In this document: positions 18,024 through 64,000 of the stretch, piece by piece | How positions within the stretch are numbered: position 1 is the first letter of the stretch | Layout: every line of letters begins with the position of its first letter | Assembly (NCBI GenBank): GCA_964016885.1 | Contig: OZ024741.1 | Span: 197,532,001-197,596,000 of the forward strand | DNA length: 64,000 nucleotides | Direction of reading: 5' to 3' | From: Eledone cirrhosa | Taxonomy: Eukaryota | Program-made: the position numbers and the translations under genes | Notes under the pieces: model-generated | What the model was told of the DNA's origin: nothing | Database searches by the model: none | What the model saw: only the letters and a program-made list of their open reading frames with translations

Positions 18024-18092
<69 letters not shown>

Positions 18093-18147
18093 TTTATAGA
18101 AGGAGCTTCTACAGGACTAGTACTGTTTCATTCAGATGAAATCTTCA

Positions 18148-18202: not shown

Positions 18203-18286
18203 TTCTATAAAATAAAAAAAATTTACTCTGCCATGTATTGAGTACCTTACTTACTGTGGTTATCCCCGACTCAACCCGGGACCTAC

Positions 18287-21177: not shown

Positions 21178-21451
<274 letters not shown>

Positions 21452-24158: not shown

Positions 24159-24430
24159 CACACACAGACACAGACACACACACACACATACAGACGCGCG
24201 CACGCACACACACATATACATACACACACATATGCACACATACACACACACACATACACACACATATATATATATATATATAAGTATTAAGTTGTTAAAC
24301 AAAATTCGATGATTATGTCAAAGAATGAGTTTTACAGTAGATTGGAAGCACTCAACGGTAAATAATTTTCAGAAGTTATTAATATTAAAATATAAGTATT
24401 AATAAAATAGATGTTCTTTTGATCAATTGC

Positions 24431-24483
24431 ATTTTATTATACATATTTCGGATGTACAACAGTACGTCCTCATCAGACAAAAT
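24431..24483 (-). ncRNA. Type I hammerhead ribozyme (family C, left arm)
   Basis: Reverse complement of 24591-24643. Confidence 0.88.
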
Positions 24484-24495
24484 ATAATAATACAT

Positions 24496-24590
24496 GACTT
24501 TGCCTTTCATCCTTACGTGGTCGATAAAATAAAGTACCAGTAATGCACTGGGTAATTTGCTGGCCTTGTGCCTAAAGTAGAAACAATTAT
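24496..24590 (+). mobile_element. 5'-truncated SINE in the spacer of the family C palindrome
   Basis: SINE core and tail. Confidence 0.88.
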
Positions 24591-24643
24591 ATTTTGTCTG
24601 ATGAGGACGTACTGTTGTACATCCGAAATATGTATAATAAAAT
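24591..24643 (+). ncRNA. Type I hammerhead ribozyme (family C, right arm)
   Basis: ATTTTGT-CTGATGA-GGACGTAC-tgtt-GTACATCC-GAAA-tatgta-TA^ATAAAAT. Confidence 0.9.
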
Positions 24644-24683
24644 GTAATTGATCAAAAGAACATCTATTTTATTAATACTTATA

Positions 24684-24830: not shown

Positions 24831-25107
24831 CGAAGGAAATGTGGTAAGGAACCAGGTGGACCATAACGCACCAAAGTACTCAATACTTAGGGTAGTAGAG
24901 TGGGTAATAGGAACGAGTAGGACCCCGACGGCTGAGCTCAAGCCGTTTCGACGGCTAATTCTGGACCCAGAATTGTCTGGTCCAGAATTAGCCGTCGAAA
25001 CAGCTTGAGCTCAGCCGTCGGGATCCTACTCGGGGTCCTTATATATATATAAGAACGAGTAGGACCCCGACGGCTGAGCTCAAGCTGTTTCGACGGCTAA
25101 TTCTGGA

Positions 25108-25109
<2 letters not shown>
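24831..25109 (-). mobile_element. Family E fold-back element plus an adjacent fragment
   Basis: Arms ~24915-24967 / 24979-25031; extra partial copy 25051-25109. Confidence 0.72.
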
Positions 25110-25151
<42 letters not shown>

Positions 25152-30300: not shown

Positions 30301-30680
30301 AAACCACCTGATAGCATGTGTAGTGTGTATATTGATATTATACATGTATTATGCATGTATTACACATGATATTATGCATGTAAATAAAATCGTAATTGAC
30401 AATATACACAGAAATTGAACGAAGACTGTGTTACACTGTCTTCTGTAATCAGTAGAGTAATCCATGATACATTTAAAAAAAGACGATATTATATATAAAC
30501 TGCATTAGGAGAAAATTAGCGATTATAAGTGTTATAATATAACGGCCGCTAACCGGAAGTGTTGATATTTGACAATTTTAAAGAAGTGAATCTTTAAATA
30601 AGCTATAGAATATATTTAATCAACAGCCACGAAATTTAGTAGATAAATTATGTAATATTCATTCATTATTTATTCAAAGG

Positions 30681-30870
30681 AGGTGGATTGGCAGTATCGG
30701 TAGAGGGTCGGACGCCATGCTTTGACGTATAGAGTTACGGTCCTTGCCATTCTGAGTTCAAATCCCGCCGAGATTAACTTTGCCTTTCATCCTTACGGGG
30801 TCGATAAAATAAAATACCAGTAATGCACTGGTTAATTGCTGGCCTTGTGCCAAAAGTAGAAACAATTATT
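30681..30870 (+). mobile_element. SINE, full length, with TSD
   Basis: Flanked by direct repeat ATTATTTATTCAAAG. Confidence 0.92.
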
Positions 30871-32838
30871 TATTCAAAGTAATCCAACTTATTTTACAAA
30901 CGGGGTAAAAAAAATATATTCTGGATGCAGTCCTGCACTCCTTACTTTATTATAGTTAAGATTATTATTATTGTTGTTGTTGCTGTTGTTTTTGATAGTG
31001 GTGGCGGTGGTGTTTATGGTATTGTTGTTGTTGTTGTAGGAATGCAAGTTATGACTGAATTTTAAGGGTCGTGTTTTATTTAAATTTAACCCCCCCCCCC
31101 CAGTGAATCAATCAGGCGCTGTTTCTAACTCCGTCTCTTTCTTGTTCAACTTTCCTGCTATAGCACCTTGTGTATCATTGTTATATATTTTAACTAGATT
31201 CTATCGTATCTTAGTACTTTTCATTTATTCAGTATTTTTAATGAGTACGTGTTACTTCTGCTGTTATTTCGCCCTACACGATTGTTCAGATGCTATTCTC
31301 GTTGTTTTAAATACACCTGTCAATAGAGAATCCTTATCTTGCTGTTGGTGCTGTATTGATTTCTATCTTTTTCTTACTAGATTCGGGGGAAATGGTGATA
31401 GATTCGTCGTCATTTTCATAGCGATGGATTTTTTGCGATTGAGTGAGGATCTCTTGTTTCAAACGGTCTTTGATTATGGAATTATTTCGGTGTGTTATAT
31501 TCCTGTAGGAGTTGTCGCTCCTTTCTCTTTCTCAATTGTGTCGTTTTGATATTGATTTGATTAAGGATTGTGTATTAGTTTTCCACGTTGTTTGATTTAG
31601 TTTTCATGTTGATATTTGAGTACCCACTTTCTTTTGTAACTACAGTAGAAGATACATATAATTTTTCATTTGACCTGCAAGTATTCATAGTTGTGTTTGT
31701 TTTAATAGTGTAATGCCCGTATTTGTGTGAGCTTTTTATTGTTTTTGTTGCAATTATATCGTTCGGTTTTATCTTTGGGAGGTAGTATTATTAGTAAAAA
31801 ATGTCATATTTTTGTTAAATCTTGAAATATTTTCACATCTAGATGCTCATGAACATGATTTCCACCTTTATTAATTTATTTCTTAAATTCTCTTTAAATT
31901 TGAATTTTTGATTGTATCTTTCTGATTCGGTGTTCGTTTGTATTCTGTAGGTCTTCAGCGTTTCAATGGGCCGGTTTCTCGTGTTTTGTAATTCACATTG
32001 GTTGTTTTTGGTCGCTTTCCTTGTTCTATCTTGGTGATTTAAGTTCTCAATATAACCATCTCTCTCTGTGCCTGTCTCTCTCTCTCTCACACACACACAC
32101 GCACACACACACACAAACACTCTCTCACACACACCCATATATAAATATTTTATATATTATATATATTATATATATATATATTATATATATATATATATGT
32201 TATATATTATATATATATATCTATATATCTATATATCTATATATTATATATATATTATATATATCATATATATATATGTTATACATATACGTCTATATAT
32301 CTATATATTATATCTATATATATATCTATATATTATATATATATTATATATATATATATATTATATATATATCTATATATTATATATATATTTATTTGAA
32401 TATATATATCTATATATTATATATATATATTATGTATATATATATATATTATATATATATATATTATATTTATATATTATATATATATTATATATATATT
32501 ATATATATATTATATATCTATATATATATTATATATATATATATATATATTATTTATGATAAGACATATGGAGAATAGGTTTGGCTGTGTAGGTGCTAGT
32601 TAAGGTAGCTTAAAATGGAATGAGAATAACAGGTTCTTGTTTTCTTCTTATTCTCATTCCATTTTAAGCTATATATTATATATATATGATATATATATAT
32701 TATATATATATATATATTATATATAAATTATATATATATATATTATATATATATTATATATATTATACATATATTATATATATATATTATATAATATATA
32801 TATATTATATATATATTATATATATTATATATATATAT

Positions 32839-32991: not shown

Positions 32992-33051
32992 TTTCATTCT
33001 GAGGATTGAAAGCAAAACCTTTTGCTTTTAAGAAACCACTGGTAAATGGAA
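32992..33051 (+). ncRNA. Type I hammerhead ribozyme
   Basis: TTTCATT-CTGAGGA-TTGAAAGCAAA-acct-TTTGCTTTTAA-GAAA-CC-act-GG-TA^AATGGAA; in a ~200-bp element (32954-33150) whose tail resembles the Penelope pLTR tail. Confidence 0.88.
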
Positions 33052-33228: not shown

Positions 33229-33396
33229 ATATACATATTATAAATATATATATATTATATATATATGCAAAAGTTTTATTTAAAATTGTTGGGTTACAAC
33301 AAGTAAATATTTTATAACTGATATAAAGCAATCAACAAGTTTTGGAGTAGATATACGATATTAAACAAATGGAAACTATATTTATAAAACCATATT

Positions 33397-33461
33397 TATT
33401 TCATTATACATATTTCGGGGATACCATATTAAAAATATGGCATGCCTTCTTCAGATAAAAT
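33397..33461 (-). ncRNA. Type I hammerhead ribozyme (family D, left arm)
   Basis: Reverse complement of 33512-33576. Confidence 0.82.
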
Positions 33462-33510
33462 TCAATATTTATGGTACGTCAAAATTATTTATAAAACTGT
33501 TTATATATTG

Positions 33511-33576
33511 TATTTTATCTGAAGAAGGCATGCCATATTTTTAATATGGTATCCCCGAAATATGTATAATGAAATA
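33511..33576 (+). ncRNA. Type I hammerhead ribozyme (family D, right arm)
   Basis: TATTTTAT-CTGAAGA-aGGcATGCCATATT..AATATGGTATcCCc-GAAA-tatgta-TA^ATGAAATA. Confidence 0.85.
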
Positions 33577-33829
33577 AATATGGTTTTATAAATATAGTTT
33601 CCATTTGTTTAATATCGTATATATTATATATATATATATATATATTACATATATATAGATATATATTACTGGTCATTCCGTATGGTCAACCTCGATGTAA
33701 CATTATGGAGAGCACTCAACGTAATGCAACTCACCTGTCTTCGTTTGTGTAGTTGGTGGTGCGAGTACGGAGTGAATTATTATAAAACAACAGGAGGCTG
33801 GACTGGTGTAAATCCTTGAAAAGCTTATT

Positions 33830-34607: not shown

Positions 34608-35125
34608 TATACTAATTAGTTAGGGTTTAAATTTGTTTTTATGTAATATGTGTGCGTAATATGTGTACGTAAATAGTTTGTTTAAAAATGGGCGCAGAAG
34701 GCAAAGAAGAAAAGAATGTTTAAGGAAGAAAATATCTAACATCAAAAAATATATATGTTTACGAAATATTTTCTAATGGTAATAATATAATATATTAAAA
34801 GAAATTAGTTAGGGTTTAAGTTTGTTTTTATGTAAAAGTCAAACGAGCATGAAAGGATGAGAAGAGAAATTTAAGGAAGAGAAATCTAACGTCAAAAAAA
34901 CTTAAACCCTAACTAATTCCTCTAAATTCATAACTCATTCATTTTGCTCCTTCTTTTCACATTATATCCTTAATAACATTAATATTTTTATTTTAATAAT
35001 ACATATTAATAATTTCTTTTCCTAGCACATATTATTAAACCCATCAATATACAAACCTTAATTTAATATTATTCTTAATTACTTTTCCTCTTCATGCATA
35101 AACCTCATTATCTTATATTATATAG

Positions 35126-35511
35126 GGCGGGGGATTGGCAGTATCAGTAGAAGGTCGGACGCCATCCTTTCCAGCATAGTTACGTCCCTTTACGGTCTGA
35201 GTTCAAATCCCGCCAAGGTTAACTTTGCCTTTCATCCTTACGGGGTAGATAAAATAAAGTACCAGTAATGCACTGGGTAATTGCTGGCCTTGTGCCAAAA
35301 GTAGAAACAATTATATATATATAATAATGGCGGTGGATTGGCAGTATCGGTAGAGGGTCGGACGCCATGCTTTCCAGCATAGTTACGTCCCTTTACGCTC
35401 TGATATCAAATCTCGCCGAGGTTGACTTTGCCTTTCATCCTTACGGGGTCGATAAAATAAAGTACCAGTAATGCACCGGGTAATTGCTGGTCTTGTGCCT
35501 AAAGTAGATAC

Positions 35512-35516
<5 letters not shown>
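35126..35516 (+). mobile_element. Two tandem full-length SINEs
   Basis: 35126-35313 and 35328-35516. Confidence 0.92.
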
Positions 35517-35610
<94 letters not shown>

Positions 35611-35715
35611 CCATATATTATATATATATATCATATATTATATATATATCACATATTATATATATATCCAGTAATGCACTGGGTAATTGCTGGCCTTGTG
35701 CCTAAAGTAGAAACA

Positions 35716-35761
<46 letters not shown>

Positions 35762-35763
<2 letters not shown>

Positions 35764-37548
35764 GCGAGATACTGCAGAAACAATACTGCTCTGTTTTCAG
35801 CAATCCTGATATGGCCGATCTGGGCCGTATCAGTGATGTTAATCCCCAACACACTATATCAGACATAATGTTTGGCGCCCCTGATGTCTTAGCGGCAATA
35901 AACGAAATTAAACACAATTCAGCAGTAGGCCCTGACAGGTTCCCTGCTTGTGTCCTGAAGATGTGCCGACTCCAACTTGCATCTCTTCTTGCAAATCAGT
36001 GGAGGAACTCACTGGACACTGGCTATATTCCTGAAAACTTTCTGTCCCAATCCGTTGTCCCAGTCTTCAAAAAGGGAAATAAGTCCCTTGCAGTGAACTA
36101 CCGTCCGATCTCACTCATCTCTCATATTATCAAGATATTTGAGAGGGTCGTGAGATCACGAGTAACCTACTTTCTTGAAAGCAACGGCCTGCTGAACTCC
36201 AACCAACATGGGTTCCGTAATGGAAGGGACTGCCTAACGCAGCTCCTGCATCACTTTAACGATGTTTTGTAAGTCTTGGGAGAGGGCTCCAACACTGATG
36301 TCATCTACCTTGACTTCAGCAAGGCCTTTGACAGGGTTGATCATAAGATTCTACTGAAAAAACTATCCAATGTTGGTGTCTCTGGAAGGTTACTACAGTG
36401 GATCAAATGTTTCCTGACAGGCAGAACCCAGCATGTTGTAGTCGAAGGAGTAAAATCAAGCCCTGCCAAAGTCAGCAGTGGCGTTCCACAAGGCACTGTG
36501 TTGGGCCCACTTCTTTTCATCATTCACATTAATGACATTACTGACATCATCAAGCACAGCAACATCAGAATCTTCGCAGACGATTCCAAGCTCCAAAGGG
36601 TCATTAATAAGGTGGGTGGCCTGACTTGCCTTCAGTCAGACCTACTGGCTGTTATCCAATGGGCAGAAATGAATAATATGCTGTTGAATGAAAATAAATT
36701 TGAATTAATCCACTTTGTAAAAAAGGATGCCCTGAAACTACCATACTCTCTTTCTTCGGGTGAAACTCTAGTGGCATCTAATACCATCAGAGACTTGGGA
36801 GTAATTGTGGACAACAACATAAGCTGGGCCACTCTTATAAACAGCAAAGTTGATATGGCCCGCAGAATGTGTTCCTCGATTCTTAGAACTTTCCAGTCGA
36901 GAGATATCCACACTGTTATCCTTCCCTTCTCCACTTTTGCCCGACCCCACCTTGAATACTGTTGTCCACTGTGGTCATCCCACACGAAACAAAGTATCAT
37001 GAAAGTTGAAGAAGCCCAAAGGTCAATTACAAAAAAGATAGATGGCATGACAGGCCTTGACTATTGGAGTCGATTAGAAAAGCTCAAACTTTATTCTCTC
37101 CAACGTCGCCGCGAGCGCTACATTATCTGTATGATGTGTAAAATATTCCATCAGCTTTGCCCAAATGATGTTGGCATCAACTTTAGTGTACACCTAAGGC
37201 TTGGGCCCCGTGCTTATACGCCCACAACAAAAATCTCACTCGCATCACATAACAACAATACGGCACAATTATTTCACCTCAATTGGCCCTGCACTCTTTA
37301 ACATTACACCAAGACACATCAAAGCAGAGACAGACCCCATCAAGTTCAAGAAGTCTTTGAATAAATTCCTTCAAGAAATCCCGGATAAGCCTCCTACACC
37401 CGAATATGCCTCCGTAAACAATAACTCTCTGCTCGAGTGGGCCATGGTGCCCAAACACTGATTTGTAAGACTTCGCCATGTGGTGCTATTAAGTTAGACA
37501 TGGCCTGGGCCAATACTGGCCGAAACCTATTAAAGTTATCAAAGTTAT
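35762..37548 (+). mobile_element. 5'-truncated CR1-like LINE (RT) inserted in (TA)n
   Basis: NYRPISLISH, QHGFRNGR, YLDFSKAFDRVDH, GVPQGTVLGPLLF, FADD; one stop at 36270 and a late frameshift; tail TAAAGTTATCAAAGTT. Confidence 0.92.
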
Positions 37549-39898: not shown

Positions 39899-40416
39899 CA
39901 TATATTTATATTATATATATATTATATATATAATATATATATATATATAATATATATATATTATATATATGCATATTATATGTATTATATATATATTATA
40001 TATATATTATATATATATTATATATATATTATATATATACACAGTTCAAGAGTAATGAATCTTAAAGAAAGAGACGGAGATAGGAGAGGAGACATTGGTG
40101 AATTAGTTAGAAGCCAAAGCGTAAAGGCTTGTGCTGAATGTGCAATATGCAGTGGAAAGCAGCTAAGTGGCTGCATTCATGCAGAGTTTAGGTGCACAGA
40201 GCTGGAAATAGTCATTAGTTAAGCAAAACAAGACCAACAATTTCGGCCATCTTGTTACCCATAGGCAGATCTCACACAATGCAGCCTCGACAGAATAATA
40301 CTGCTCGACTATGGCAGACAATTGATATATCCAGGACACCATAGTGAAATACCAATATATGGAACATTACATTTATGTAACATTCTTTCCTTATTTTAAT
40401 TTATATTCCTTTTGAA

Positions 40417-40535
40417 GTTCCGATGAGCTGCTCTATCTTTACCTATGTTAATTATTTTCAACTGAACCAGATTAATAATTATATATAATCATTTTATCCA
40501 GAAATATTATATGGAGTAGCGAAATAATTGTAAAC
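40417..40535 (+). ncRNA. Hammerhead ribozyme variant with CCGATGA core and ~74-nt loop II
   Basis: GTT-CCGATGA-GCTGCTCTAT-[74 nt]-ATGGAGTAGC-GAAA-taattg-TA^AAC; 10-bp stem II. Confidence 0.68.
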
Positions 40536-40640
40536 GGACATTATTATTAATAACATTATTATTATTATTCTCTACATTCCTTACCTCAATGTCTTCCTTG
40601 TGAAATTTGTGGTCTTGCTTTGCTTAATTAATGAATATAT

Positions 40641-40692
<52 letters not shown>

Positions 40693-40695
<3 letters not shown>

Positions 40696-41371
40696 AATAG
40701 AATGAAACGAAATTTCATTTCTCACTCTTACGACGACACTTACTTAAATGTAAGTATGTATGTATGCGTACATACATATATATATACAGACGTACAGTAG
40801 TGTGTATATATATATACATACATGCACACATATATATATGCACGTATCGGTTTACCGAACATTTATTATAATGCTCGGTTTGTTTGTTTGTAAACAAACA
40901 AACAGCCCGAATTACGCCGTACAGTGTTTAGGCAACCACGTCACCTTTTTGTTCAACACTGACACAGGAACGATGTACTAGTTTCAAGTTTATTAGCTAT
41001 CATCAGCATCGTATACCTTCCTGCCAGATGGTTGAACGTCTGAAAGTATATACTTTCCTTATGCATATTAACGTCTGAGCAGCTTAATTTGCATATCGAG
41101 TGAGTTCAGACGGCCAGGCACACCGAAAACGATAAATGGAATACAATGAAACGAAATTTCATTTCTCACTCTTAGTACGGCACTTACTTAAATGTAAGTA
41201 TGTATGTATGTATACGTACATGCATATATGTATACAGACGTACAGTAGTATGTATATATATACATTCATGCACACATATATATATGCACGTATCCTGTGT
41301 CAGTGTTGAACAAAAAGGTGACGTGGTTGCCTAAACACTGTACGGCGTAATTCGGGATGTTTGTTTGTTTA
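40693..41371 (-). mobile_element. Family F retrozyme-like element: ~444-bp monomer in partial tandem, plus an inverted segment
   Basis: 40693.. repeats at 41137..; 41294-41371 is the reverse complement of ~40890-40968. Confidence 0.8.
40970..41012 (-). ncRNA. Type I hammerhead ribozyme (family F)
   Basis: Minus: ACGATG-CTGATGA-tAGCTaataAACTt-GAAA-CTAG-TA^CATCGT. Confidence 0.85.
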
Positions 41372-41541
41372 CGCTCTATCTCAAAATTATTTTTGAAAAG
41401 CATTAGAAATGCGCAACCGGTAAAACTTAAAACCAAAACTGAATACTAAACAATACTATTACTAATTCTCACTTATTCCTAATTAAACTATTTTTCACTG
41501 TGAACAATTTGTTAGCATTTTCTATTCCGTTTACCAATATA

Positions 41542-41647
<106 letters not shown>

Positions 41648-41907
41648 ATATATATAATATATATTATATATATATATATAATATATATAATATATATAAT
41701 ATATATAATATATATATATTATATATATATTTTATATATATATATATTTTATATTATATATATACATATATTATATATATATGTTATATAAATATATATT
41801 ATATATATATACATATATATATATTATATATATATATATTATATATATATATTATATATATTATATATACATACATACACACACACACACATACACACAC
41901 ACACACT

Positions 41908-41949
<42 letters not shown>

Positions 41950-42075
41950 AATGTATATATAGTGTATTTTGCAATACACTGTATGCTTAATTGAAAGCAT
42001 TTTGAAGACCATACGCTATTGTTTTAAAATAGTGACAATGACACTTATTTACATTTTCAGCAAACAGGGGAGATA

Positions 42076-42120
42076 AACTGACAGAGTTCTGTTTCGTACT
42101 TTTTAGTACTTATCAAAGCT
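42076..42120 (-). ncRNA. Hammerhead ribozyme with U3-A8 core (TTGATAA)
   Basis: Minus: AGCT-TTGATAA-GTACT-aaa-AGTAC-like stem II-GAAA-CAG-aact-CTG-TC^AGTT. Confidence 0.78.
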
Positions 42121-42396
42121 CACTATTCCTCCTGTTTGTTGAAAATTTAAATAAGTGACATTGTCACTATTTTAAAACAATAGCATATGGTCTTCAAAAT
42201 GCTTTTAATTAAGCATACAGTGTATTTCAAAATACACTGTATATACATTCATATATATATCGCTATTTCAGAGCACCAATTCTAAGTTTCAATTCCTGCT
42301 GGACCGGCGACCGGTCTGTATAATCAGTTCCTGATTATTATTGGAATTTTATAAGAACCAAACACACATAATTTTCAGCAAACAGGAGGAGTAGTG

Positions 42397-42443
42397 AGCT
42401 TTGATAAGTGCCAAAAAAAGTACTAAACAGAGACCTGTCAGCT
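42397..42443 (+). ncRNA. Second TTGATAA-core hammerhead, GAAA mutated to TAAA
   Basis: AGCT-TTGATAA-GTGC..GTAC-TAAA-CAG-agac-CTG-TC^AGCT. Confidence 0.68.
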
Positions 42444-42610
42444 TTATCTCCCCTTTTTGCTGAAAATTTAAATAAGTGCCATTGTCACTATTTTAAAACA
42501 ATAGCGTATGGTCTTCAAAATGCTTTTAATTAAGCATACACTGTATTGCATAATACACTATATATACATTCATATATATATCGCTATTTCAGAGCACCAA
42601 TTCTAATTTT

Positions 42611-42694
<84 letters not shown>

Positions 42695-42992
42695 ATTATA
42701 GTGGAAAATAGAAGTTGCAGCTATGGCAGCATCTCTCGAAATAACAATCCTCAGAAGATTGCACAAGCACTCGATAAGATGATATCGGTAAATCGATAAA
42801 TTAAATCTACAACAACAGTAGGTAAAGAATGCCACAACAGCGACAACAGCCACTACAACAACGAAAATACCAACAAGTTAATATATATAGACACATTGTG
42901 TCTACTCTCGGAATTTTACAAAACCTTACCTATTGAGTACGCTGAGATGCAACCGGTACTAGCAGGGAAACTTATGCTAATCCTGTCAACTT

Positions 42993-43030
<38 letters not shown>

Positions 43031-43084
43031 CTCTGATACCACCAACACCTTAAACACAGAGCTGGGATATCTAAGAACTGACTA

Positions 43085-43142
43085 ACTGCCTGATGAGGTC
43101 ATAGCCATTCACTGGCTATCATCGAAATATATATATAGCAGT
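43085..43142 (+). ncRNA. Type I hammerhead ribozyme
   Basis: ACTGC-CTGATGA-GGTcATAGCCA-ttcac-TGGCTATcATC-GAAA-tatatata-TA^GCAGT followed by AATAAA. Confidence 0.9.
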
Positions 43143-43188
43143 AAATAAAGGATTATGAGTTCATGCAATTGATTTATATTTCGTCACT

Positions 43189-43273
<85 letters not shown>

Positions 43274-43600
43274 CTTACAATTATCTTACAATATATATAT
43301 ATTATCTTACAATTTCTTTTTCAACATATATTATATACGTATTTGTGGTCACACATACACTGATATGCTTGCCCTCACATATGTACTTACGCACACATTT
43401 TTTCACTATACACATGCATTTGTACATACACACATATGTACATTTGTGAGTGAATATACACACATTTATACACATACCCAAACTATATTTCCTTATTTTA
43501 TTTTTATATATCTCTTGCATTACTTTTATTTATATATTCTTTTGCCCGTTAAACTTTTGCCTTTCTTGAAGAGATTTTTCAAATATTTCACTATGTTTTA

Positions 43601-43678
43601 AATTGCCTTGTCCGACGAACGAATCAGGACGTTTCTTGTATTCGTCTTATTCGGGAAACCTCTGGTAATGAGGTAATT
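43601..43678 (+). ncRNA. pLTR hammerhead ribozyme, CCGACGA core
   Basis: AATTGCCTTGT-CCGACGA-aCGAAT..ATTCGg-GAAA-CC-tct-GG-TA^ATGAGGTAATT; 11-bp stem I. Confidence 0.85.
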
Positions 43679-43892
43679 ATATTGTATTCTTTATAATACA
43701 TTAAATTTAGCGCTGGTACATAGAGCACTCTTCACTCCTATGACTTTTTCAATTTTCAACGGAAACTTCAATACTTATACAGCTCCCAAGGGAATGATCG
43801 TAGCATATTCTACATTTTTATGAGATTGGTACCTTCCAGCCCTTTTAAAGTCCAGCACTCTTCAGTCAAAAGGATTTTAACCAATACTGAAC

Positions 43893-46017
43893 ATGGATAA
43901 ACATAATTTGGATTACTCCATCAAGAATATCCCAACACCTTCTAACACTTCCTACACTAAAATGCTGATAGACAAAGTAGAGAAAGTTGTTAAAAGAATG
44001 AGATGGAAAGCTTTGATTTTCGATGAACACTTTAACACGGACTCTACAGAACATTTTGATATCGGGTCTCATAAATACCCACAAAGAGTAAAAGATATGA
44101 CTGCTTTTGAACTGGACTTAGTTAATTTAATCAACCAAATCAAATTCCGTAAGTACTCTAACCCTTTTCAATCTAAACTATCTAATGATATTTCAATATT
44201 CAAATCTTCTAAAAATAAGTTCATTTTCTCTGACAAAACTAAAAACTTATACGAAGTTATTAATAACTTCCATGACCAACTCTTAACAGATAACATCACC
44301 TCTAAATACCAAATAGCTAATATAAACACTTATAATACTATAAATAAGGAAGCTAAAGAATTAGCTAGTTTTTTTAAAATAGACAATAGAACAGAAAAAC
44401 TTGCTAAACGTAATGCCTATATCACCCTCAAAGATCACAAACCTGATTTTATTAATCGTCCTAGTTCTAGATTAATCAACCCTGCTAAGACTGAAATCGG
44501 TCTTGCTAGCAAAAAAATATTAAATAATATACACAAACATATTAGAAGTAAGTCTGAATTACTCCAATGGATAAATAGCTTTTCCGTAGTACATTGGTTT
44601 AATAATATTAAAGATAAAAATAGTTCTAGATTCATCCAATTTGACATTGTAGACTTCTACCCGTCTATTACTCACCCTCTTTTAACGAAAGCCTTAAATT
44701 TCGCTAGAAAGTTTATCAATATTTCTGATATTGAAGAGAATGTCATTTTGCATGCTAGAAACACTCTACTTTTTACTAATAATGACACTTGGGTAAAAAT
44801 ATCTAACCCAGAGAACCCATTCGATGTCTCAATGGGTTCTTTTGACAGTGCTGACGTGTGTGATTTGGTCGACCTATTCCTCCTACACACACTTAAAGAG
44901 AAATTCCCTAACCATACCTTTGGGCTTTATCGCGACGATGGTCTAATACTTTACCATACCACCATAGGCCATATCTTAGATAGATTAAGGAAAGACTTAT
45001 TAAAAACCTTCGCTAGTTTTAATCTTAAAATTACTATTGACACTAACCTTTCCAATGTTAATTTTCTAGATATAAACCTAGATCTGCCTACTGCTTCTTA
45101 TAAACTATACCATAAACCTAATGAAAATTTAAAATATATAAATAAAGGCTCTTGCCATCCTCCTATAGTTTTTAAAAACCTTATCCCTAATATTAGCCGT
45201 AGGATCTCCACCCTCTCTTCTTCAGAAGCTATTTTCCCTACTATAATAAAGCCCCTCAAAATAGCGGATTTAGCGAACCGATTAAGTACGTACCCAACAA
45301 TACTAACTCCTTTAAGCATAATAATAGGAAAAGAAAAATAATCTGGTTCACACCCCCTACTCTTTAGCAGTTAAAACTAATGTAGGCAAAACATTCCTAG
45401 AGCTCTTAGATAAACATTTCCCTAGAACATATAGATACTATAAGATCTTCAATAGAAACTGTGTCAAAATCAGCTACTCCTGCGGTCCCCCTATTAAATC
45501 TTATATCCTCAATAAGAAAATACCCAGAGAACATCAAAATTGCTCCTGTAGAGTCAAAAGTGAATGCCCATTACAAGGTAAATGCAACACCAAAGCCATT
45601 GTATATGCGGCTAAAGTGACAACCACCAGCAACAACCTACCATCCACCAGCGAACGCTATGTGGGTATGATACAAGACAAATTCAAAACGCGTTATTACT
45701 CACATGTCGCATCTTTCCGACATCCTGAAAAAAGATTTACAACAGCTCTGGCTAGCAGAATATGGGATTTGAAAGACCAAGGTATCCAATATAAATTGGA
45801 TTGGTCAATTTTGAACCAATCTAAAGAATATGCAAGAGGAACAAGAAGATGCGCACTCTGCATAAGTGAAAAATATTGGATTTTACATAACATTAAATCA
45901 CCAAAAACCTGCCTAAATGCAAAAACAGAAATTTTCACCAGTTGCCCACACATGAAATCACACTTGCTTTCCAGCTCATATAAACTTAACTCACTTTCAG
46001 ATACTTATCCTCCATAA
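43893..46017 (+). pseudogene. Penelope-like RT plus GIY-YIG endonuclease ORF, frameshifted near 45240-45360
   Basis: FSDKTKNLY, RLINPAKTEIG, QFDIVDFYPSI, SMGSFDSA, YRDDGL, FLDINLDL; C-terminus CSC..CPLQGKC..IVYAAKV..YVG..FKTRY..H, CALC..EK, SCPH. True start may lie upstream. Confidence 0.92.
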
Positions 46018-47260
46018 ACTCTTGTTCTTCACTTTCCTTAAATTACCCTCTTTACAGACTTCTCTTTCTGATTTACTTTTATTTTTATTTGTAACTTTAT
46101 TTTTACTTCACATCCACCAGTGCCCCCCACCCTGCTTTTTGATTCACTTACCTAATATCTTCACAATTCCACACATTTTACTTCCCCATTTTCTTTCACT
46201 ACCTGATATCACTTGTCACTTGCGTTTTCAACTCCAGATATATTCTGTTGTCTCTCAGCCGCTTTTATGTATGTATAATTTGTACTCATTTATTCATTCG
46301 GCTGGTTTTTAATTTGTATCTATGCGTGTGAGTGTGCATGTGTGTGTGCATGTGTGTGTATGCGTGTTTGTATACGAACGCATTCGTATGTGCGCGTGTG
46401 TGTGTATATGTGTGTGTGTATGTGTGTTTTTATATCTATGTTTTTTACATACTTATATATACGTGTGTGTGTGCACGTATATGTATATATATATGTATAT
46501 GTATGTATATATATGTATGTATGTGTGTATATGTATATAGTCGCGTACGTGCGTGTGATTAGATATACATGTGCCTATATATATATATGTGCTTCGTGTG
46601 TATGTATGCGCGCCTTTGTATGTGTGTACGCATGTATGTGCTTTTGTCTGTACGTATTTCTATATATATTTTTATATATATATATGTGTACGTACGAACC
46701 TATGTTTGTTTTCTATTTTCTCTAGTGTTACTTTATAATTGATAACCCCTCCCTCTTACTTTCTCTTTGATTTAAAATTTTTGTTTTATTCTCATATATG
46801 TATCGAGCCTCAGACTGACACTGCTTTGACTGATACACTCCCTTCCCTGTATATATCACTCGCATGTATGTGGTCGCGTGTGTGTGTGTTTATACGCGTG
46901 CTTTCATGCCTGTATGTGTATATATTTCAATCCTTAATACCGGAATCTGGATGTTCGTTAACTCTATTATCTTACAATTTTTTTTCAACATATATTATAT
47001 ACGTATTTGTGGTCACACATGCACTGATATGCTTGCCTTCACATATGTACTTACGCACACATTTTTTCACTATACACATGCATTTGTACATACACACATG
47101 TACATTTGTGAGTGAATATACACACATTTATACACATACCCTTACTATATTTCCTTATTTTATTTTTATATATCTCTTGTACTACTTTTATTCATATATT
47201 TATTTGCCCGTTAAACTTTTGCCTTTCTTGAGGAGATTTTTCAAATATTTCACTGTTTTA

Positions 47261-47338
47261 AATTGCCTTGTCCGACGAACGAATGAGGACGTTTTTTGTA
47301 TTCGTCATATTCGGGAAACCTCTGGTAATGAGGTAATT
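47261..47338 (+). ncRNA. pLTR hammerhead ribozyme, second copy, CCGACGA core
   Basis: Same structure as 43601-43678. Confidence 0.85.
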
Positions 47339-47588
47339 AAATTTAGCTCTGGTACTTACATAGAGGACTCTTCACTCCTATGACTTTTTCAATTTTCAAC
47401 GGAAACTTCAATACTTATATATATATATATATATAATTTTTATGCTTACATAGCAGAACGTATGTGTAAAAAAACCCACACCGTCTGTGTATTACTCGTG
47501 ACAGTATCTTGTTAGCTCAATGTACGAAAACAGAGCCGTTATAGTAAGAGAAAACAAATAGCGCTTATAACAACAATCGATTTTTATT

Positions 47589-48364: not shown

Positions 48365-48411
48365 CGCTCTGATGAGTCCTGCCCCATGGTATGGATGAAA
48401 CACAGTCAGCG
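48365..48411 (+). ncRNA. Type I hammerhead ribozyme (family H, right arm)
   Basis: CGCT-CTGATGA-GTCC-TGCC-ccat-GGTA-t-GGAT-GAAA-C-aca-G-TC^AGCG then AATAAA. Confidence 0.88.
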
Positions 48412-51750: not shown

Positions 51751-52106
51751 AATCATTAAGTACGAAAACATTTTACCTTTATATGCTGAATTAATTCTCA
51801 TTATGTATAAATGAACTCTCCCGAACGGGATATTTTTCCTTCTCTAGAATCTTATATTTTCAAGATTGTTTCTTAAAATCATATGATAGCAGAAACAAGC
51901 ATGGATCTATTTCGATACATGAGACCAGTTTCTAATTACGGGAATTGTTTTAATCACAGACCTTTTACATTATTTTTCTAGCATATCTTATAGGCCAAAA
52001 GGAGTTACTTGTTTTTCGGCCATTATTTAGAAGCGTTATTCTGTTCCTATATGTATATGAATACTCCTAGATGTCTAGAGAAATTACATTTTTTCGGTCA
52101 TTATTC

Positions 52107-52293
52107 GGTGGATTGGCAGTATCGGTAGAGGGTCAGACGCCATGCTTTCCGGCATAGTTACGTCCCTTTACGATCTGAGTTCAAATCCCGCCAAGGTTAA
52201 CCTTACCTTTCATCCTCACGGGGTCGATAAAATAAAGTACCAGTAATGTACTGAGTAATTGCTGGCCTTGTGCCAAAAGTAGAAACAATTATT
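52107..52293 (+). mobile_element. SINE, full length
   Basis: A/B box, core and tail. Confidence 0.9.
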
Positions 52294-52717
52294 TAGAATC
52301 TTCAATCTATTCCTTTACGAATATGAATACTCCTAGATGTTTTTGAGAATAATTGTAAACGGAGTAGATAGATCCAAACCGGACAGCCAAACCGGACAAA
52401 CAAACCGAACAGCCTTATTAAAAACTTGCAACTAGTTATCAGGAGATGTAAAGGATTTATAAACACTACAAACCTTTTTGGAAGGTTCTTGAAATTGATT
52501 GCTTTACAAAATAAACAATGAAATATAACGAAATTGGTTATTTGTATTGATATTTTTGACGTCTTCATTCAACAATAACATAGGAAACTAACTTTTAACA
52601 CTTCAAAATCAGTATTAACAGGCTCCATTTATTCTTAGCCACCAGTCCAAGGAGGTGTTTATAGATATCTTTAGATTGGCTAATATATATATATATTAAT
52701 ATGCATATACATATATA

Positions 52718-53131: not shown

Positions 53132-53166
<35 letters not shown>

Positions 53167-53371
53167 TAAGTATGTATACGCACATACATATATGTATACA
53201 GACGTACAGTAGTATGTATATATATATACATACATGCACACATATATATATGTGCGTATGGATTCTCCGAACATTCATTATAATGCTCGGTGTGTTTGTA
53301 AACAAACATCCCGTATTAAGCCGTAGTATCTAGCAACCATCGTTGCTTGTTTGTTCAACACTGATAAAAGA

Positions 53372-53414
53372 ACGCTGTACTAGTTTCAAGCTTATTAGCT
53401 ATCGTCAGCAACGT
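53372..53414 (-). ncRNA. Type I hammerhead ribozyme (family F)
   Basis: Minus: ACGTTG-CTGACGA-tAGCTaataAGCTt-GAAA-CTAG-TA^CAGCGT. Confidence 0.88.
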
Positions 53415-53698
53415 ATACCTTCCTGCCAGATGGTTGAACGTCTGAAAGTATATACTTTCCTTATGCATATTAACGGCTGAGTAGCCCAATTTGCATATCG
53501 AGTGGGTTAATCGGCCGGGTTCACCGAAAACGATAAACTAAGAGTGGGAAATGAAATTTCGTTTCATTTTTTCCGTTTATCGTTTTCGGTGAACCCGGCC
53601 GATTAACCCACTCGATATGCAAATTGGGCTACTCAGCCGTTAATATGCATAAGGAAAGTATATACTTTCAGACGTTCAATCATCTGGCAGGAAGGTAT

Positions 53699-53749
53699 AC
53701 GCTGCTGACGATAGCTAATAAGCTTGAAACTTTGAAACTAGTACAGCGT
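53699..53749 (+). ncRNA. Family F hammerhead with an 8-nt duplication around GAAA
   Basis: ACGCTG-CTGACGA-tAGCTaataAGCTt-GAAACTTT-GAAACTAG-TA^CAGCGT. Confidence 0.8.
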
Positions 53750-54024
53750 TCCTTTGTCAGTGTTGAACAAACGAGCAACGATGGTTGCTAGATACTACGG
53801 CTTAATACGGGATGTTTGTTTACAAACACACCGAGCATTATAATAAATGTTCGGTGAATCCATACGTACATATATATATGTGTGCATGTATGTATATATA
53901 TATACATACTAATGTACGTCTGTATACATATATGTATGTGCGTATACATACTTATATTTAAGTAACAGCCGTACTAAGAGTGGGAAATGAAATTTCGTTT
54001 CATTTTTTCCGTTTATATATATAT

Positions 54025-54725: not shown

Positions 54726-54900
54726 CGAAGGAAGTGTGGTAAGGAACCAGGTGGACCATAACGCACCAGTGTACTCAATACTTAGGGTAGTAGAGTGGGT
54801 AATAGGAACATTTTCAAGACCTCGACGGCAGAGCTCAAGCCGTTTCGACGGCTATAGTCGTCGAAACGGCTTGAGCTCTGCCGTCAGGGTCTTGAACATT
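54725..54900 (-). mobile_element. Family E fold-back element
   Basis: Arms ~54813-54854 / 54855-54896. Confidence 0.72.
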
Positions 54901-54960
54901 TTCCTATATATATATATATATAGTAATAAATGGTAAATATATCACTATAGCATCATAATT

Positions 54961-55020: not shown

Positions 55021-55155
55021 CAATATTAGATGCATAAAAATGTGACATTCTCATAATAGAGATCGCATTCGATCAATTCAAAATGGGTATGTGATTCAAA
55101 ATCTCAAAATTTCCTAGGACGTAAAGTTATTGGGAAATATAAACAAATAAATAAA

Positions 55156-57738
55156 TAATTGTTTCTACTTTAGGCACAAGGCCAGCAATTACCCAGTTCA
55201 TTACTGGTACTTTATTTTATCGACCCCGTAAGGATGAAAGGCAAAGTTAACCTCGGCGGGATTTGAACTCAGATCGTAAAGGGACGTAACTATGCTGGAA
55301 AGCATGGCGTCCGACCCTCTACCGATACTGCCAATCCACCGACCCCAACAAATAAATAATAAGGACAGTTAAAATAGACGCTAGAAATTGCTTGATATAT
55401 ATATATTTCTTATTTGCTTTTTTTCTGAAATCGTAGTGTTCTTTAATACAATACTTATAGCTTTAGAGGGTGAGTGAGCTGTCACGCAATGCAGCCCCTG
55501 CAGCTAATGATGAGCCTTACCCCAAATCTTTGAAACGGATAAGCTCTCATAATCAACACCCCAAGAAAGGCCTCTTTAGACCTGGCCAGTTTTATAAAGT
55601 GGCTACACTCAACTGTAGAATTCTAAGCACTGCATCGTCAAAAGCTGAGCTCAATAAACTCAGGAATTACTACATCTCTGTAACATGCATTCAAGAACAT
55701 CGTTTGTACATTTTCACTCCAACCCAGAAAAGTTGCACTCAATCTTGGGTCTACAACTCTCTTCACTGCATCTGCTGTTCAAAATGACTGTGAGACTTCC
55801 ATCCGAAATATGGACACTTTTCTCGACTCAAAACTACTACCTCTGCTCCTTTCAGTCCCAGAAGATTGACAAGCATATCGTTTCTGTCACATTTATGGGA
55901 AATCCCAAGACAGACTTGCTTGTTACTCTCCGCACACCAGTTTGCCGGATGATGTAATTACTGACTTCTATTCCAAACTAAACAACAGAGTTGAGGACAT
56001 TCTGATCCATTCGATGCTTATCCTCATGAACGCACAAATCGCGAAGGGTTTCTCATTGTATGACACACCCAATTGCAATGGATTTCTCCTTCTCGAATTT
56101 ATCGAACAACATAATCTTATCATCGGGAGTGTCCCCTTCCACAAATCGTTGAACCAATTATGAACATTATCGGGTGCCTTATCGCAAATTGATTTCTGCA
56201 GGTATCGAAAACGATGCCAAGCTTTCTCATCATCTACATCAATTGGGAACGATCACCGCATAATAACAGCAACAATAAAATTCAGTTTGCGACGCCCGAA
56301 ATTTCCAGGAAATTGTTCAAAGCTCTAGTCAACCATATAGATAATTGTTTCTACTTTAGGCACAAGACCAGCAATTACCCAGTGCATTACTGGTACTTTA
56401 TTTTATCGACCCCGTAAGGATGAAAGGCAAAGTTAACCTCGGCGGGATTTGAACTCAGATCGTAAAGGGACGTAACTATGCTGGAAAGCATGGCGTCCGA
56501 CCCTCTACCGATACTGCCAATCCACCGACCCCAACAAATAAATAAATAATAAGGACAGTTAAAATAGACGCTAGAAATTGCTTGATATATATATATTTCT
56601 TATTTGCTTTTTTTCTGAAATCGTAGTGTTCTTTAATACAATACTTATAGCTTTAGAGGGTGAGTGAGCTGTCACGCAATGCAGCCCCTGCAGCTAATGA
56701 TGAGCCTTACCCCAAATCTTTGAAACGGATAAGCTCTCATAATCAACACCCCAAGAAAGGCCTCTTTAGACCTGGCCAGTTTTATAAAGTGGCTACACTC
56801 AACTGTAGAATTCTAAGCACTGCATCGTCAAAAGCTGAGCTCAATAAACTCAGGAATTACTACATCTCTGTAACATGCATTCAAGAACATCGTTTGTACA
56901 TTTTCACTCCAACCCAGAAAAGTTGCACTCAATCTTGGGTCTACAACTCTCTTCACTGCATCTGCTGTTCAAAATGACTGTGAGACTTCCATCCGAAATA
57001 TGGACACTTTTCTCGACTCAAAACTACTACCTCTGCTCCTTTCAGTCCCAGAAGATTGACAAGCATATCGTTTCTGTCACATTTATGGGAAATCCCAAGA
57101 CAGACTTGCTTGTTACTCTCCGCACACCAGTTTGCCGGATGATGTAATTACTGACTTCTATTCCAAACTAAACAACAGAGTTGAGGACATTCTGATCCAT
57201 TCGATGCTTATCCTCATGAACGCACAAATCGCGAAGGGTTTCTCATTGTATGACACACCCAATTGCAATGGATTTCTCCTTCTCGAATTTATCGAACAAC
57301 ATAATCTTATCATCGGGAGTGTCCCCTTCCACAAATCGTTGAACCAATTATGAACATTATCGGGTGCCTTATCGCAAATTGATTTCTGCAGGTATCGAAA
57401 ACGATGCCAAGCTTTCTCATCATCTACATCAATTGGGAACGATCACCGCATAATAACAGCAACAATAAAATTCAGTTTGCGACGCCCGAAATTTCCAGGA
57501 AATTGTTCAAAGCTCTAGTCAACCATATAGATAATTGTTTCTACTTTAGGCACAAGACCAGCAATTACCCAGTGCATTACTGGTACTTTATTTTATCGAC
57601 CCCGTAAGGATGAAAGGCAAAGTCAACCTCGGCGGGATTTGAACTCAGATCGTAAAGGGACGTAACTATGTTGGAAAGCATGGCGTCCGACCCTCTACCG
57701 ATACTGCCAATCCACCGCCCTACTGCCAATCCACCGCC
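55156..57738. repeat. Near-identical 1.19-kb tandem duplication bounded by three minus-strand SINEs (55156, 56342, 57532)
   Basis: Identical ORFs offset by 1190 bp (55470/56660, 55942/57132). Confidence 0.95.
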
Positions 57739-59049: not shown

Positions 59050-62000
59050 ACCTAATACAACAAGAAGAAAACAGCAACAAAATCACCCCTTCCCCCCAAA
59101 AGTACACAGCCATAAACATGGCAAATAAAGAATCATACAACATATAAAAAAAAACGACTACACCCCTCCAACACCAAGAACTCTCCCGACAAACATAAGC
59201 ATCATTGAAATCAATATAGAACATTACAAACTTTTAAAACAAAAATTCCCCAACGCAGTTGGAGACTTCAGAGGGTCGGTTACCAAGAGGATATACACTA
59301 ACATCCTCTTGGAAACACCCATGACCAGCCAAACGGACGGTTCTACTGTCCCTTCACCACACAATCAAGGTAAGTGACCCTTTCTCACTTGCCCCGTTTC
59401 TCATCCAGAATGGCCGTACTTAGAATAGGCAGTATAAATGTACGTGGCCTGGGGTCATCTTGAATGCAGGGTCACCTGCTCAACGACCTCAGGTCACTAA
59501 ACATAGATGTGGTGGCCATCAGCGAGACCAGAATATCCGAAGCACGAGCCTTCGCACCGATCTTCGGCGACTACGATGTATACGCATCTCCCGGCCGTCC
59601 AGGATCGGGGGCAGGTGTTGTCGACTTTTTGAGAGAGGCTTGGATCTCGCCATACGGGCCATCTTCTTGGACCCAGAAGGCAAGTCGGTGGTGCTGGACG
59701 GTACCGGCAGCGAAGGCAATGCTTTCAGGCTAGTAGCCATCTACGCCCCCAACTGGAGCAGGACGGCCAGATTTCTTTAGACGTCTAGAGACCTTTCTTG
59801 GAACGTCCCGCTCTTTAGTGTTAGTGGGAGACTGGAACGGTATCTTGGATGCACGCTGGGATTGTGTGGGGCTTTTGGATAGGGGAGGAGAGTGCAAGAG
59901 CCTCACCAACCTGCTCAGACGTTTTGAACTGTCTAACAGGTATCGACTGGATCACCCGAATGTGCCAATGTGGACATGGACAAACCGTATCGGGTCATCC
60001 AGATCGTATCTCGATAAGGTATTCTGCAGAGAACTAGATAAGGCTAATATAAGTTGTCCACAATTTAAAATAGTCGATCACACAGACCACAAATTTGTGA
60101 TCTGTGAAATCGACATAGACAGACTTCAACCGACAAGGACCCGGTTACTGGAAGCTGAACGCGTCTTTCCCGGCGCGCAAAGCCTACAGAGACTGGATTA
60201 GCGTATTAGTTAAGCGGGCGTTGACGGGAGCGGTCGTCAACAACAGGTGGTGGTTTACCCTGAAAAGGGCAATTAAAGTAGAGTCGATTAGGTTTAGCAA
60301 AGGACTAGTGATAGAGGAAAATAGAGTAGAGGGAGAGCTAGTCAGAAAGCTAGAAGAGGCGTTTAGGATAGGCATCGCAACCGACGTTCTGCATCGAGAT
60401 TGGCACTCGACCGATTCTTCAACGCAAAACACGAAGGCTGCGTTGTCAGAGCTAGAGAGCGTGCTCTGAAATACGAGGGGACGTGCTCTGAAATACGTTC
60501 AATGGGCCCGGGTGGCAGAGGCGCGACGTGACAACAAAGCCACAATTCGGTCTTCGTCTGACCAAAACGGGCGTGTGTTGCTCGAACCCGAGCAGATGTG
60601 TGAGGCTTTTCAGCAGCACTTTTCTGAACTGTTAGGGAGCAGCGGCGGGCCGGATCTGTGTATGGACTTCAGTGCATACCACGACGGACTGCCTCGGCTC
60701 TCAGCGACCGCAAAACAGTGTTGCGAAAAGACAATAGCAGCCGGTGAAATACGGGAAGCGATGGCTAACTGTACGAGGGGTATATCGCCAGGTTTGGATG
60801 GTCTGCCCTACGAGCTTTATGCATTTATGCCAGACTTGTTCGATGACCTCTTGGCAGACGTCTACTGCAAATGACAGCAAAACTGGAGCATTCCCAGTTT
60901 TGTGAGACGGGGAGCGGTGGTGCTGCTGAGAAAAGACCCGAACAAGGGGATGTTATCAATAACTTCAGGCCCATAACCCTGCTAAACGCAGAGTTCAAAA
61001 TTTTGTCCAAAGTTAGTTAGCAACGAGGTTGGAGTTTATCGTCGAGGATCTGGTGGGAGAGGCGTAGGCATGCGCCATTCCGGATAGATCCATACACGAC
61101 AACCTCCACCTCATGCGATACATCATAGAGAGGGTGGTAAGGGAACCTGGCACGGGTGGGGCCCTGATCAACTTGGATCAATCCAAAGCATTCGACAGGG
61201 TTGACCGTCGGTACCTGGCGGCGATCCTCGATGCAGCCTGTTTTGGGCCCGTTTTCAGGGGTTGGATTGCTGTGATGTACAGCGACACCTCCTCAGTTTT
61301 GAGGGTGGACAGTCACCTGTCGCAGCCGTTCAGCATCATGCGTTCGGTCCGTCAGGGTTGTTCCCTCTCGTCTCTCTTGTACGTATTGGCTCTCGAGCCG
61401 TTACTGCACAAACTGGGGGCGATCCCATGGTCAGACGATATATCTGCTGTCAACACTCGTTGCGTGGAGGACTGGGCATGCCATGGCTGATGATGCGCAA
61501 ACATGCGCTGAGGCTGCGACATCTCTGGTGCTTCCTTGACGGTGAACAGGTGTGGTCGCCGTTCGCCAGGCACGTTTTCCCACAGCTCGTCTCCTTGACG
61601 GAGCTGCAGTGGCGGGTCAGGAAAAGACCGAGGGATAGTACTTGGTAACTGGAATGTCTCCAGGCGCTCACCGCCCTCTGCCAACTGGGCACCAGTATCG
61701 GTGGAACATCCACCTCGGCGTTCTATAAAGGACTAATGTAGGGAAGAGCGACGACATTCTCGGAGAGATCCTGGGCGTCGAAGAATATCAGCTGTTTGCT
61801 CTCTTGCGGAGAACTTTCAGCTCAGGGCCTAATGGATAACTTTCAAAAATCCCTGGCCTGGGAGTGCTACCAGAGAGCGTTGCCGGTTCGATATAAGCTC
61901 TACAGGCACGGAAGTGCCGTCAGCCGATCCTGTCTGAGACGCGCGCAGAGCGACGAAACCGTCGTGCACGCACTCGTTCAGTGCCCGGGCATTGCTGACT

Positions 62001-63383: not shown

Positions 63384-64000
63384 AAGTAGAAGGGGTATTT
63401 AATTTGTTGGAAATCCGACAAATATAAATATAAATGTTTATAACTGATTTAGAGCACTCAACAAATAACCAAAATAGCAGTAATAATTCTAGCAATATCC
63501 AACCTAATAGTACCGTTCCGAGCAACAACAACTCCGCAAAATGTAACTAGAATTAAATCAAATTGTCCTTTACAAAATAAGTGTTTAGATAAAAATGTGG
63601 TCTATAAATGCACAGTTAAAACTAGTGATAATATATTTAACTATGTCGGTGCCACTTCTACAGAATTTAAAATTCGCTGGAATAACCACATTTTTTCTTT
63701 CCAAAGATTTGATAAAAAATCTTCAACTTCTCTTTCAAACCTGATATGGAACTTAAAATGCAAGAATATAGACTATTCATTAGCTTGGGAAACAGTTTCA
63801 CGAGCACCCGCGTACCGGAACACAGCTCTATCTAGATTCTGCAAATTGTGTATTGAAGAAATTTTTTATATACTTAACTGTAAAAACTCAATTAATCTAA
63901 GAACGAATTTATTTAATTCCTGTAGACATCGCCAGAATTCAACATTCAATTTCTTAAATAATTACTTATCTCTTAAAAAATTATTTTTTTTAAAAGATTT
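63384..64000 (+). mobile_element. Second Naiad-type PLE: 5'-truncated GIY-YIG domain preceded by a probable inverted pLTR end
   Basis: From ~63550, not in the ORF track: IKSNCPLQNKCLDKNVVYKCTVKTSDNIFNYVGATSTEFKIRWNNH..LIWNLK..CKLCIEE..NSCRH; 63384-63500 carries GTTGAGTGCT on minus next to (TA)n. Confidence 0.85.

Follow-up and report, generated by a model that had tools for sequence, protein, structure and literature searches.

The window (the whole 64-kb stretch of DNA that was analysed) is AT-rich animal DNA with 140 tandem-repeat rows, LINE fragments and hammerhead-bearing fold-back insertions. Positions 41939-42612, set between two microsatellites, hold an old, broken copy of a small non-coding mobile RNA with a self-cutting ribozyme. 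The initial annotation had placed this element, here called Family G, at 41947-42610. Its parts, with flanks, are as follows.

41869-41938, no strand: left flank, a (CA)n then (TA)n microsatellite and likely insertion target, continuous with the (AT)5 run of the element itself
41939-42147, minus strand: inverted copy, comprising extended stem I, hammerhead and downstream segment, without the last 31-41 nt of the unit
42050-42147, minus strand: hammerhead in the inverted copy, type I with an intact core, a 5-bp stem II, a 4-bp stem III and a 28-position stem I
42131-42147, no strand: crossover zone, 17 nt shared by two readings of distal stem I, the 5' arm in inverted and the 3' arm in sense orientation
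42131-42291, plus strand: first sense repeat, the 3' arm of the stem followed by a string of short hairpins
42292-42369, plus strand: spacer, 78 nt, single-copy, without an ATG frame, with a three-way junction that holds two perfect hairpins
42370-42468, plus strand: sense hammerhead, closed by extended stem I
42452-42612, plus strand: second sense repeat, terminating at the element's 3' end
42582-42612, plus strand: one-sided 3' extension (tail), 31 nt with no counterpart in the inverted copy
42613-42695, no strand: right flank, a (CA)n then (TA)n microsatellite

Layout and boundaries of the element

The inverted copy is the reverse complement of 42370-42581 at 91.5% identity. The direct repeats 42131-42291 and 42452-42612 are identical at 152 of 161 positions and lie 321 nt apart, which bears out the length of the tandem monomer proposed earlier; the sense part totals 482 nt, or about 1.5 units and not two full monomers. 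The tail grows to as much as 41 nt if the AT run from 42572 is included. The longest Met-started frame in 41939-42612 encodes 33 amino acids and the longest stop-free frame 48, in agreement with the lack of coding capacity already noted.

Both element ends are flanked by the same compound repeat, (CA)n(TA)n, which cannot be told from background, so a target duplication is not provable. Such tracts are common in the window (8 in that orientation) and are weak as target evidence. Taken together, the inversion, tail, partial tandem and target are the usual Penelope-type (PLE) footprint, and the element is of a known kind with one distinctive junction detail.

The three repeat copies differ pairwise by 5-6% (identities of 152/161, 123/130 and 122/130). 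Across 130 nt their private changes stand at 4:3:3, plus one three-state site. The three segments have since decayed by about 3% each, consistent with a single insertion event, to which their near-equal divergence also points. A circular template and a homogeneous tandem linear one are inseparable by this measure, so the copying from circular RNA suggested in the initial annotation is one of two equivalent options.

Two hammerhead ribozymes in opposite orientation

The hammerhead core of the inverted copy consists of a U3-A8 variant, G12-A13-A14 and U16-C17, and the predicted cut lies 3' of the C at 42080 on the minus strand. The sense hammerhead has its core at 42401-42407 and C17 at 42439; its G12 is replaced by U at 42424. 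G12 serves as the general base in hammerheads. The G12U ribozyme is probably dead, as judged from its sequence. In both copies U3-A8 replaces C3-G8, a natural and active covariation of the hammerhead core according to PMC3088659, where G12 belongs to the consensus core.

The long imperfect helix reported to close the ribozyme is present with both its strands. Positions 42370-42391 and 42448-42468 pair across 21 positions, interrupted by a single bulged A and a single mismatch, and the helix runs on into a 7-bp proximal stem I to give 28 pairs in total, with 92.9% of cells paired in the two copies. From its proximal to its distal end, stem I has helices of 7, 4 and 17 pairs, the first two separated by a 2-nt bulge and the last two by a 1-nt bulge. 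Folding of the two ribozyme regions gives z = -6.2 and -5.3, and none of 200 shuffles folded as well. As to loop features, stem I has its 2-nt bulge beyond the seventh pair and loop II is rich in A, whereas a loop 1/loop 2 contact is itself not visible in sequence.

Across 37 pairs there is no compensatory change between the two copies (5 cells are unpaired and 1 is a wobble), as expected for decay after insertion. A clustering of copy differences in loops, which would have indicated two functional templates, was considered and dropped (3 of 9 in loops, p = 0.13).

A strict hammerhead scan of the window gave 6 matches, 3 of them scoring 15 or more, among which the inverted copy reached 17; ten shuffled windows yielded 4 matches, none reaching 15. 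Rfam found no match at the gathering threshold in the whole window. The best Rfam signal for the inverted copy is the sub-threshold Hammerhead_HH9 (18.2 bits vs 52, E 0.081), a weak score that the U3-A8 change may partly explain. An E-value scan of 40000-46500 returned 77 Rfam matches, mostly miRNA models on simple repeats, and no ribozymes.

With the sense ribozyme probably dead and the live-looking one antisense, no monomer can be excised from this locus in either orientation. We infer that the locus would be unable to release a 321-nt circle and is now inert as a circle source.

The unit as RNA and its copy number

Folded as a circle, 42131-42451 is predicted to reach -85.3 kcal/mol (z -7.7, 0 of 100 shuffles as good), with 62% of positions paired and the hammerhead free. 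In this fold the long stem is a neck, with the ribozyme on one side and short hairpins in a branched arrangement on the other. The minus strand of the same unit gives z -4.9 (0 of 100 shuffles). Among its parts, 42148-42291 in the first sense repeat folds at z -4.6, and the 78-nt spacer at z -2.8, a value that 0 of 200 shuffles equalled. The circular fold agrees with retrozyme circles, yet it is a prediction only and not evidence of a circle.

Searches of the 64-kb window with blastn, nhmmer (best E 0.071) and a covariance model turned up no second locus of the 321-nt unit, and with a single locus the unit length is unproven as a family trait. The covariance model, built from the two ribozyme copies, returned 81 matches at E up to 5. 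Beyond the source copies (106-117 bits) none exceeded 31.4 bits, and the top four others were non-ribozyme palindromes; six alignments were inspected and contained no second family member. An exact-pattern scan for the ribozyme core in prokaryotic genome contigs gave 0 matches, and a distant blastn search against 50,697 phage records gave none. A bacterial promoter/terminator scan found 3 sites vs 4.0 expected, which is irrelevant to an animal locus.

Relation to retrozymes and Penelope-type elements

Retrozymes are described as 150-450 bp long with less than 50% GC (PMC7229834). Metazoan non-LTR retrozymes measure 350-390 bp in mussel and 331 and 353 nt in axolotl (Cervera and de la Pena 2020, PMC7229834), and their circles are depicted as extensively self-paired, the ribozyme remaining free (PMC7229834; PMC7761336). 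Family G resembles them in its 321-nt non-coding unit, its GC content of 33%, its predicted self-paired circle with a free ribozyme, and its canonical type I hammerhead with a stable stem III. It is unlike them in having only about 1.5 units, a sole sense ribozyme with G12U and a U3-A8 core. A likeness to retrozymes is supported in size, GC content, lack of coding and fold; there is only one sense ribozyme, and the intact core sits in the inverted copy. The inverted 5' copy and the tail form no part of the retrozyme description in the accessible text of PMC7229834.

These latter features belong to PLEs. A typical PLE insertion is reported to have a partial tandem, an adjacent inverted 5' copy, a one-sided tail of 30-40 bp and (TA)n targets (Craig et al. 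2021, PMC8557442). The tail sits between two RT start sites, and cleavage and extension take place on both strands (Frangieh et al. 2024, PMC11167929); in the same in vitro work ribozyme cleavage is dispensable for insertion (PMC11167929). Family G likewise has a partial tandem before a complete unit, an inverted 5' copy next to it, a hammerhead close to its 3' end, a one-sided tail of 31 (up to 41) nt and a microsatellite target of (TA)n type on both sides. Unlike the PLEs described in PMC8557442 and PMC11167929, it has no RT-endonuclease ORF, with 78 nt in the ORF's place.

The ribozyme also departs from that of metazoan PLEs. Long-stem canonical hammerheads go with retrozymes and the minimal type with metazoan PLEs (PMC7229834; PMC4209133), and Family G has the former. 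Schistosome PLEs have opposite-strand hammerhead pairs 100-700 bp apart with a U3-A8 core (PMC4209133). Both Family G copies share this core covariation with the U3-A8 hammerheads of Perreault et al. (2011, PMC3088659) and the Schistosoma Cercyon-linked variant (PMC4209133), but in contrast to those the ribozyme is long-stemmed and has no unpaired base between A9 and G10.1.

Animal retrozymes have been argued to be non-autonomous PLE derivatives whose monomers are inactive offspring (Li, Clavereau, Pollet 2026, 10.64898/2026.07.22.740005), in a survey that covers mainly vertebrates. Family G fits the monomer class and the model of mobilisation by PLE enzymes put forward there. An active retrozyme is defined in the same text by two consecutive units with complete ribozymes; having about 1.5 units and one sense ribozyme with G12U, the locus is not filed as one. 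Nor is it filed as an autonomous PLE, since 41939-42612 contains no ORF for an RT with a GIY-YIG endonuclease.

The initial annotation had set retrozyme and PLE against each other as alternatives. That opposition falls away, because the copy bears the complete PLE insertion signature and, with the argument of the preprint, retrozyme and PLE-derived element become one explanation. We conclude that the locus is most probably a decayed insertion of a 321-nt non-coding hammerhead element that belongs with the non-LTR retrozymes and was mobilised in trans by a PLE.

Neighbouring elements with related architecture

Three groups of neighbours bear on the element.

About 43300-47420, plus strand: near full-length Hydra-clade PLE with RWK, DKT and CxCX5C marks and a C-terminal endonuclease, 700 nt from Family G
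About 53160-54016 and 40693-41372: non-coding hammerhead family with a 436-nt unit, with a partial tandem and inverted arm in the same layout
18089-18215, 21380-21451, 24914-25110, 33351-33622, 54802-54907 and 243-304: tight fold-back palindromes, several of which adjoin (TA)n

The Hydra-clade element indicates, by its sequence marks, that PLE machinery of a suitable kind has existed in this genome. Ten local comparisons of Family G with neighbouring elements produced a single alignment that beat all 200 shuffles, an AT/GT simple repeat. A derivation of Family G from the neighbouring Hydra-type PLE was rejected, as only a simple-repeat match to its pLTR was found.

The RT frame of this PLE (43881-45341) and its endonuclease frame (45328-46017) are separated by a frameshift, and its 3' end lies in (TA)n. 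Its direct repeats (43544-43779 and 47206-47419) each contain what by eye resembles a hammerhead, in which core position 4 is C and stem II is long. Among 8000 candidates, at least 761 are homologues of its protein by E <=1e-30. Most of the 120 matches listed lie on contigs of 2.3-3 kb, and the one that is named comes from a sea cucumber, which suggests a marine invertebrate host; the repeat landscape resembles that of cephalopods.

The layout of Family G is routine in this genome, and what is particular to its copy is the long stem as switch point. The window has 21 listed local inverted pairs, several of them tight fold-backs. Copies of the 436-nt family are 85% alike, and arms within a copy 93-99% alike. 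The copy at about 53160-54016 has a one-sided extension of 56-59 nt and a junction away from the ribozyme, and in the copy at 40693-41372 the inverted-arm breakpoint lies 5-7 nt past the cut site. Among the palindromes, 18089-18215 and 33351-33622 have hammerhead-like cores by eye, and in 18089-18215 the fold-back lies at the 5' stem I arm.

The inversion junction and its possible origins

The inverted copy had been reported to read through the hammerhead to the 5' helix strand and to continue with downstream sense sequence. This is what we find, with the crossover within the 17-nt distal helix: the plus strand is in inverted register up to 42147 and in direct register from 42131 onward. Counted from the position that corresponds to the ribozyme cut site, the crossover zone starts 13 nt further on. 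Among Watson-Crick inverted repeats of the circular unit the distal helix is the longest (17 vs 13 and 12 for the next), and its cDNA duplex is worth -16.5 kcal/mol with DNA parameters. The chance that a random breakpoint lies in the 29 nt following the cut is about 9%. The helix necessarily adjoins the cut site, so that running off a cleaved end and switching at the helix are inseparable here.

Snap-back at the stem, as originally proposed, agrees with the position of the junction. The sense segment after the junction holds 31 nt and then the 78-nt spacer, both absent from the inverted copy, so a local hairpin snap-back of the inverted strand cannot give this product. Snap-back is plausible only from the opposite, right-hand cDNA, and annealing of two cDNAs gives the same DNA. 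In the right-hand geometry the cDNA end would, after 1.5 units, pair with the 5'-arm copy 256 nt back, and extension from that pairing would carry on past the ribozyme as far as the (AT)5 run. For snap-back we see about an even chance.

Two-ended (twin) priming, known from L1 retrotransposons, is the strongest competitor, albeit with the lesser share of the probability. Both nicked target strands would prime reverse transcription, the left (TA)n end priming on the (AU)5 run of the RNA, and the two cDNAs, each ending in a stem I arm, would anneal. The inverted copy stops exactly at the (AT)5 run matching the target, and the inverted arm of a 436-nt-family copy begins about 5-7 nt past the cut site, both as this route would have it. 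Purified Anolis PLE protein furthermore cuts and extends both strands from two tail-flanking start sites (PMC11167929). The near-perfect fold-backs with tiny loops in the window (18089-18215, 21380-21451, 24914-25032, 54802-54907) instead suit fold-back in cis. The ribozyme part, moreover, is not significantly more diverged between copies than the rest (9 events in 82 nt vs 7 in 130; Fisher p = 0.18), which speaks against two-ended priming, and on the whole divergence fails to choose between the two routes. States common to the inverted and second sense copies (42479 and 42560) were dropped as evidence of cis templating, one being three-state and the other paired either way.

An ordinary autonomous PLE, arranged as inverted pLTR, partial pLTR, ORF and pLTR, whose ORF was deleted once to 78 nt, would mean that the 321-nt unit was never a family, and is improbable. 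The layout is identical to the PLE scheme of PMC8557442, the window has one locus only, and U3-A8 is reported in PLE-linked ribozymes (PMC4209133). However, tblastn with 121 PLE proteins gave the spacer no similarity beyond simple sequence (best E 0.045 per query), the spacer forms a coherent fold of its own, and the ribozyme has the canonical long stem linked to retrozymes, not the minimal form linked to metazoan PLEs.

Rearrangement of the DNA after insertion, by template switching at the stem I inverted repeat during replication or repair, is very unlikely: the 17-bp inverted repeat with the junction inside is a ready substrate, but such an event would not halt precisely at the element boundary with a PLE-sized tail, the inverted arm holds no flanking host DNA, and the same layout recurs in unrelated families. 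A fold-back chimera from library construction or assembly can practically be dismissed, as it would have given identical copies, whereas the three differ by 5-6% pairwise with private changes, hard as palindromes between microsatellites are to assemble (PMC8557442).

Proposed route of insertion

Returning to the preferred reading, a PLE-mobilised retrozyme-like element, we propose the following course. A source locus elsewhere would yield a head-to-tail RNA, from which the type I U3-A8 hammerhead would cut monomers, by analogy with known retrozymes. The long stem I is modelled to clamp the monomer ends, leaving the branched domain of short hairpins, and circles may form as they do in known retrozymes. 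A PLE RT-endonuclease, presumably, would nick the (CA)n(TA)n tract. Reverse transcription would start from the unit's 3' end (42612) and cover about 1.5 units, a geometry that the insertion itself displays, and would halt 13-29 nt short of the upstream cut site, within the distal part of one stem arm. Since the end of this cDNA is complementary to the copied opposite arm, it could then pair across 17 nt and be either extended back, with roughly balanced odds, or, somewhat less probably, annealed to a second cDNA, producing the inverted copy. This copy is joined to the left (TA)n flank where the element has its (AT)5 run, and the one-sided tail of 31-41 nt is left over. The segments have since decayed by about 3% each; the sense ribozyme has lost G12, and the locus would be left inert for circles.

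We speculate, with considerable doubt, that the locus is a fossil of a more specific mechanism, in which the RT reached the ribozyme-cut 5' end and the 28-bp stem that clamps the monomer also steers fold-back of the cDNA, fixing inversions there. A breakpoint just after the cut site occurs in two of the three insertions examined (Family G and one 436-nt-family copy), and the third lacks it. If true, this would be direct genomic evidence that PLE machinery moves retrozymes, and hammerhead cleavage would set the template end in vivo, a role absent from in vitro PLE work. In the field, PLE mobilisation of animal retrozymes rests so far on co-occurrence and pLTR similarity. A retrozyme-sized unit with the full PLE footprint of inversion, tail and target supports the link, though a single decayed copy proves little.

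A literature search, with most subscription journals beyond its reach, found no paper on stem-directed inversion in PLEs or on this 321-nt family.

Other repeats in the window

24430-24484 (minus strand), 24586-24648, 32992-33051, 43085-43142 and 48365-48411 (all plus strand): five more type I hammerheads with C3-G8, from the strict scan
63465-63974, plus strand: C-terminal endonuclease fragment of a Hydra-like PLE (tblastn best E 3e-31), 5'-truncated and adjoining (TA)n
9117-9305, 30676-30873, 35103-35517, 52106-52295, 55151-55364, 56335-56530, 57525-57722 and shorter pieces: SINE-like dispersed repeat of about 190 nt
35706-37301 and 59737-60201, plus strand: LINE-type fragments with RVT_1 (E 2e-18 and 2e-5) and an exo/endonuclease/phosphatase domain (E 5e-5)

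Of six further ribozyme-like stretches that were folded, one beat all shuffles, and one (43645-43745) was mis-positioned. The SINE-like repeat has more than 12 copies or fragments with 76-97% identity and is arranged head to tail at 35107-35532. The region 55151-57720 is a recent tandem duplication or an assembly product, with a period of about 1190 nt and 99.3% identity.
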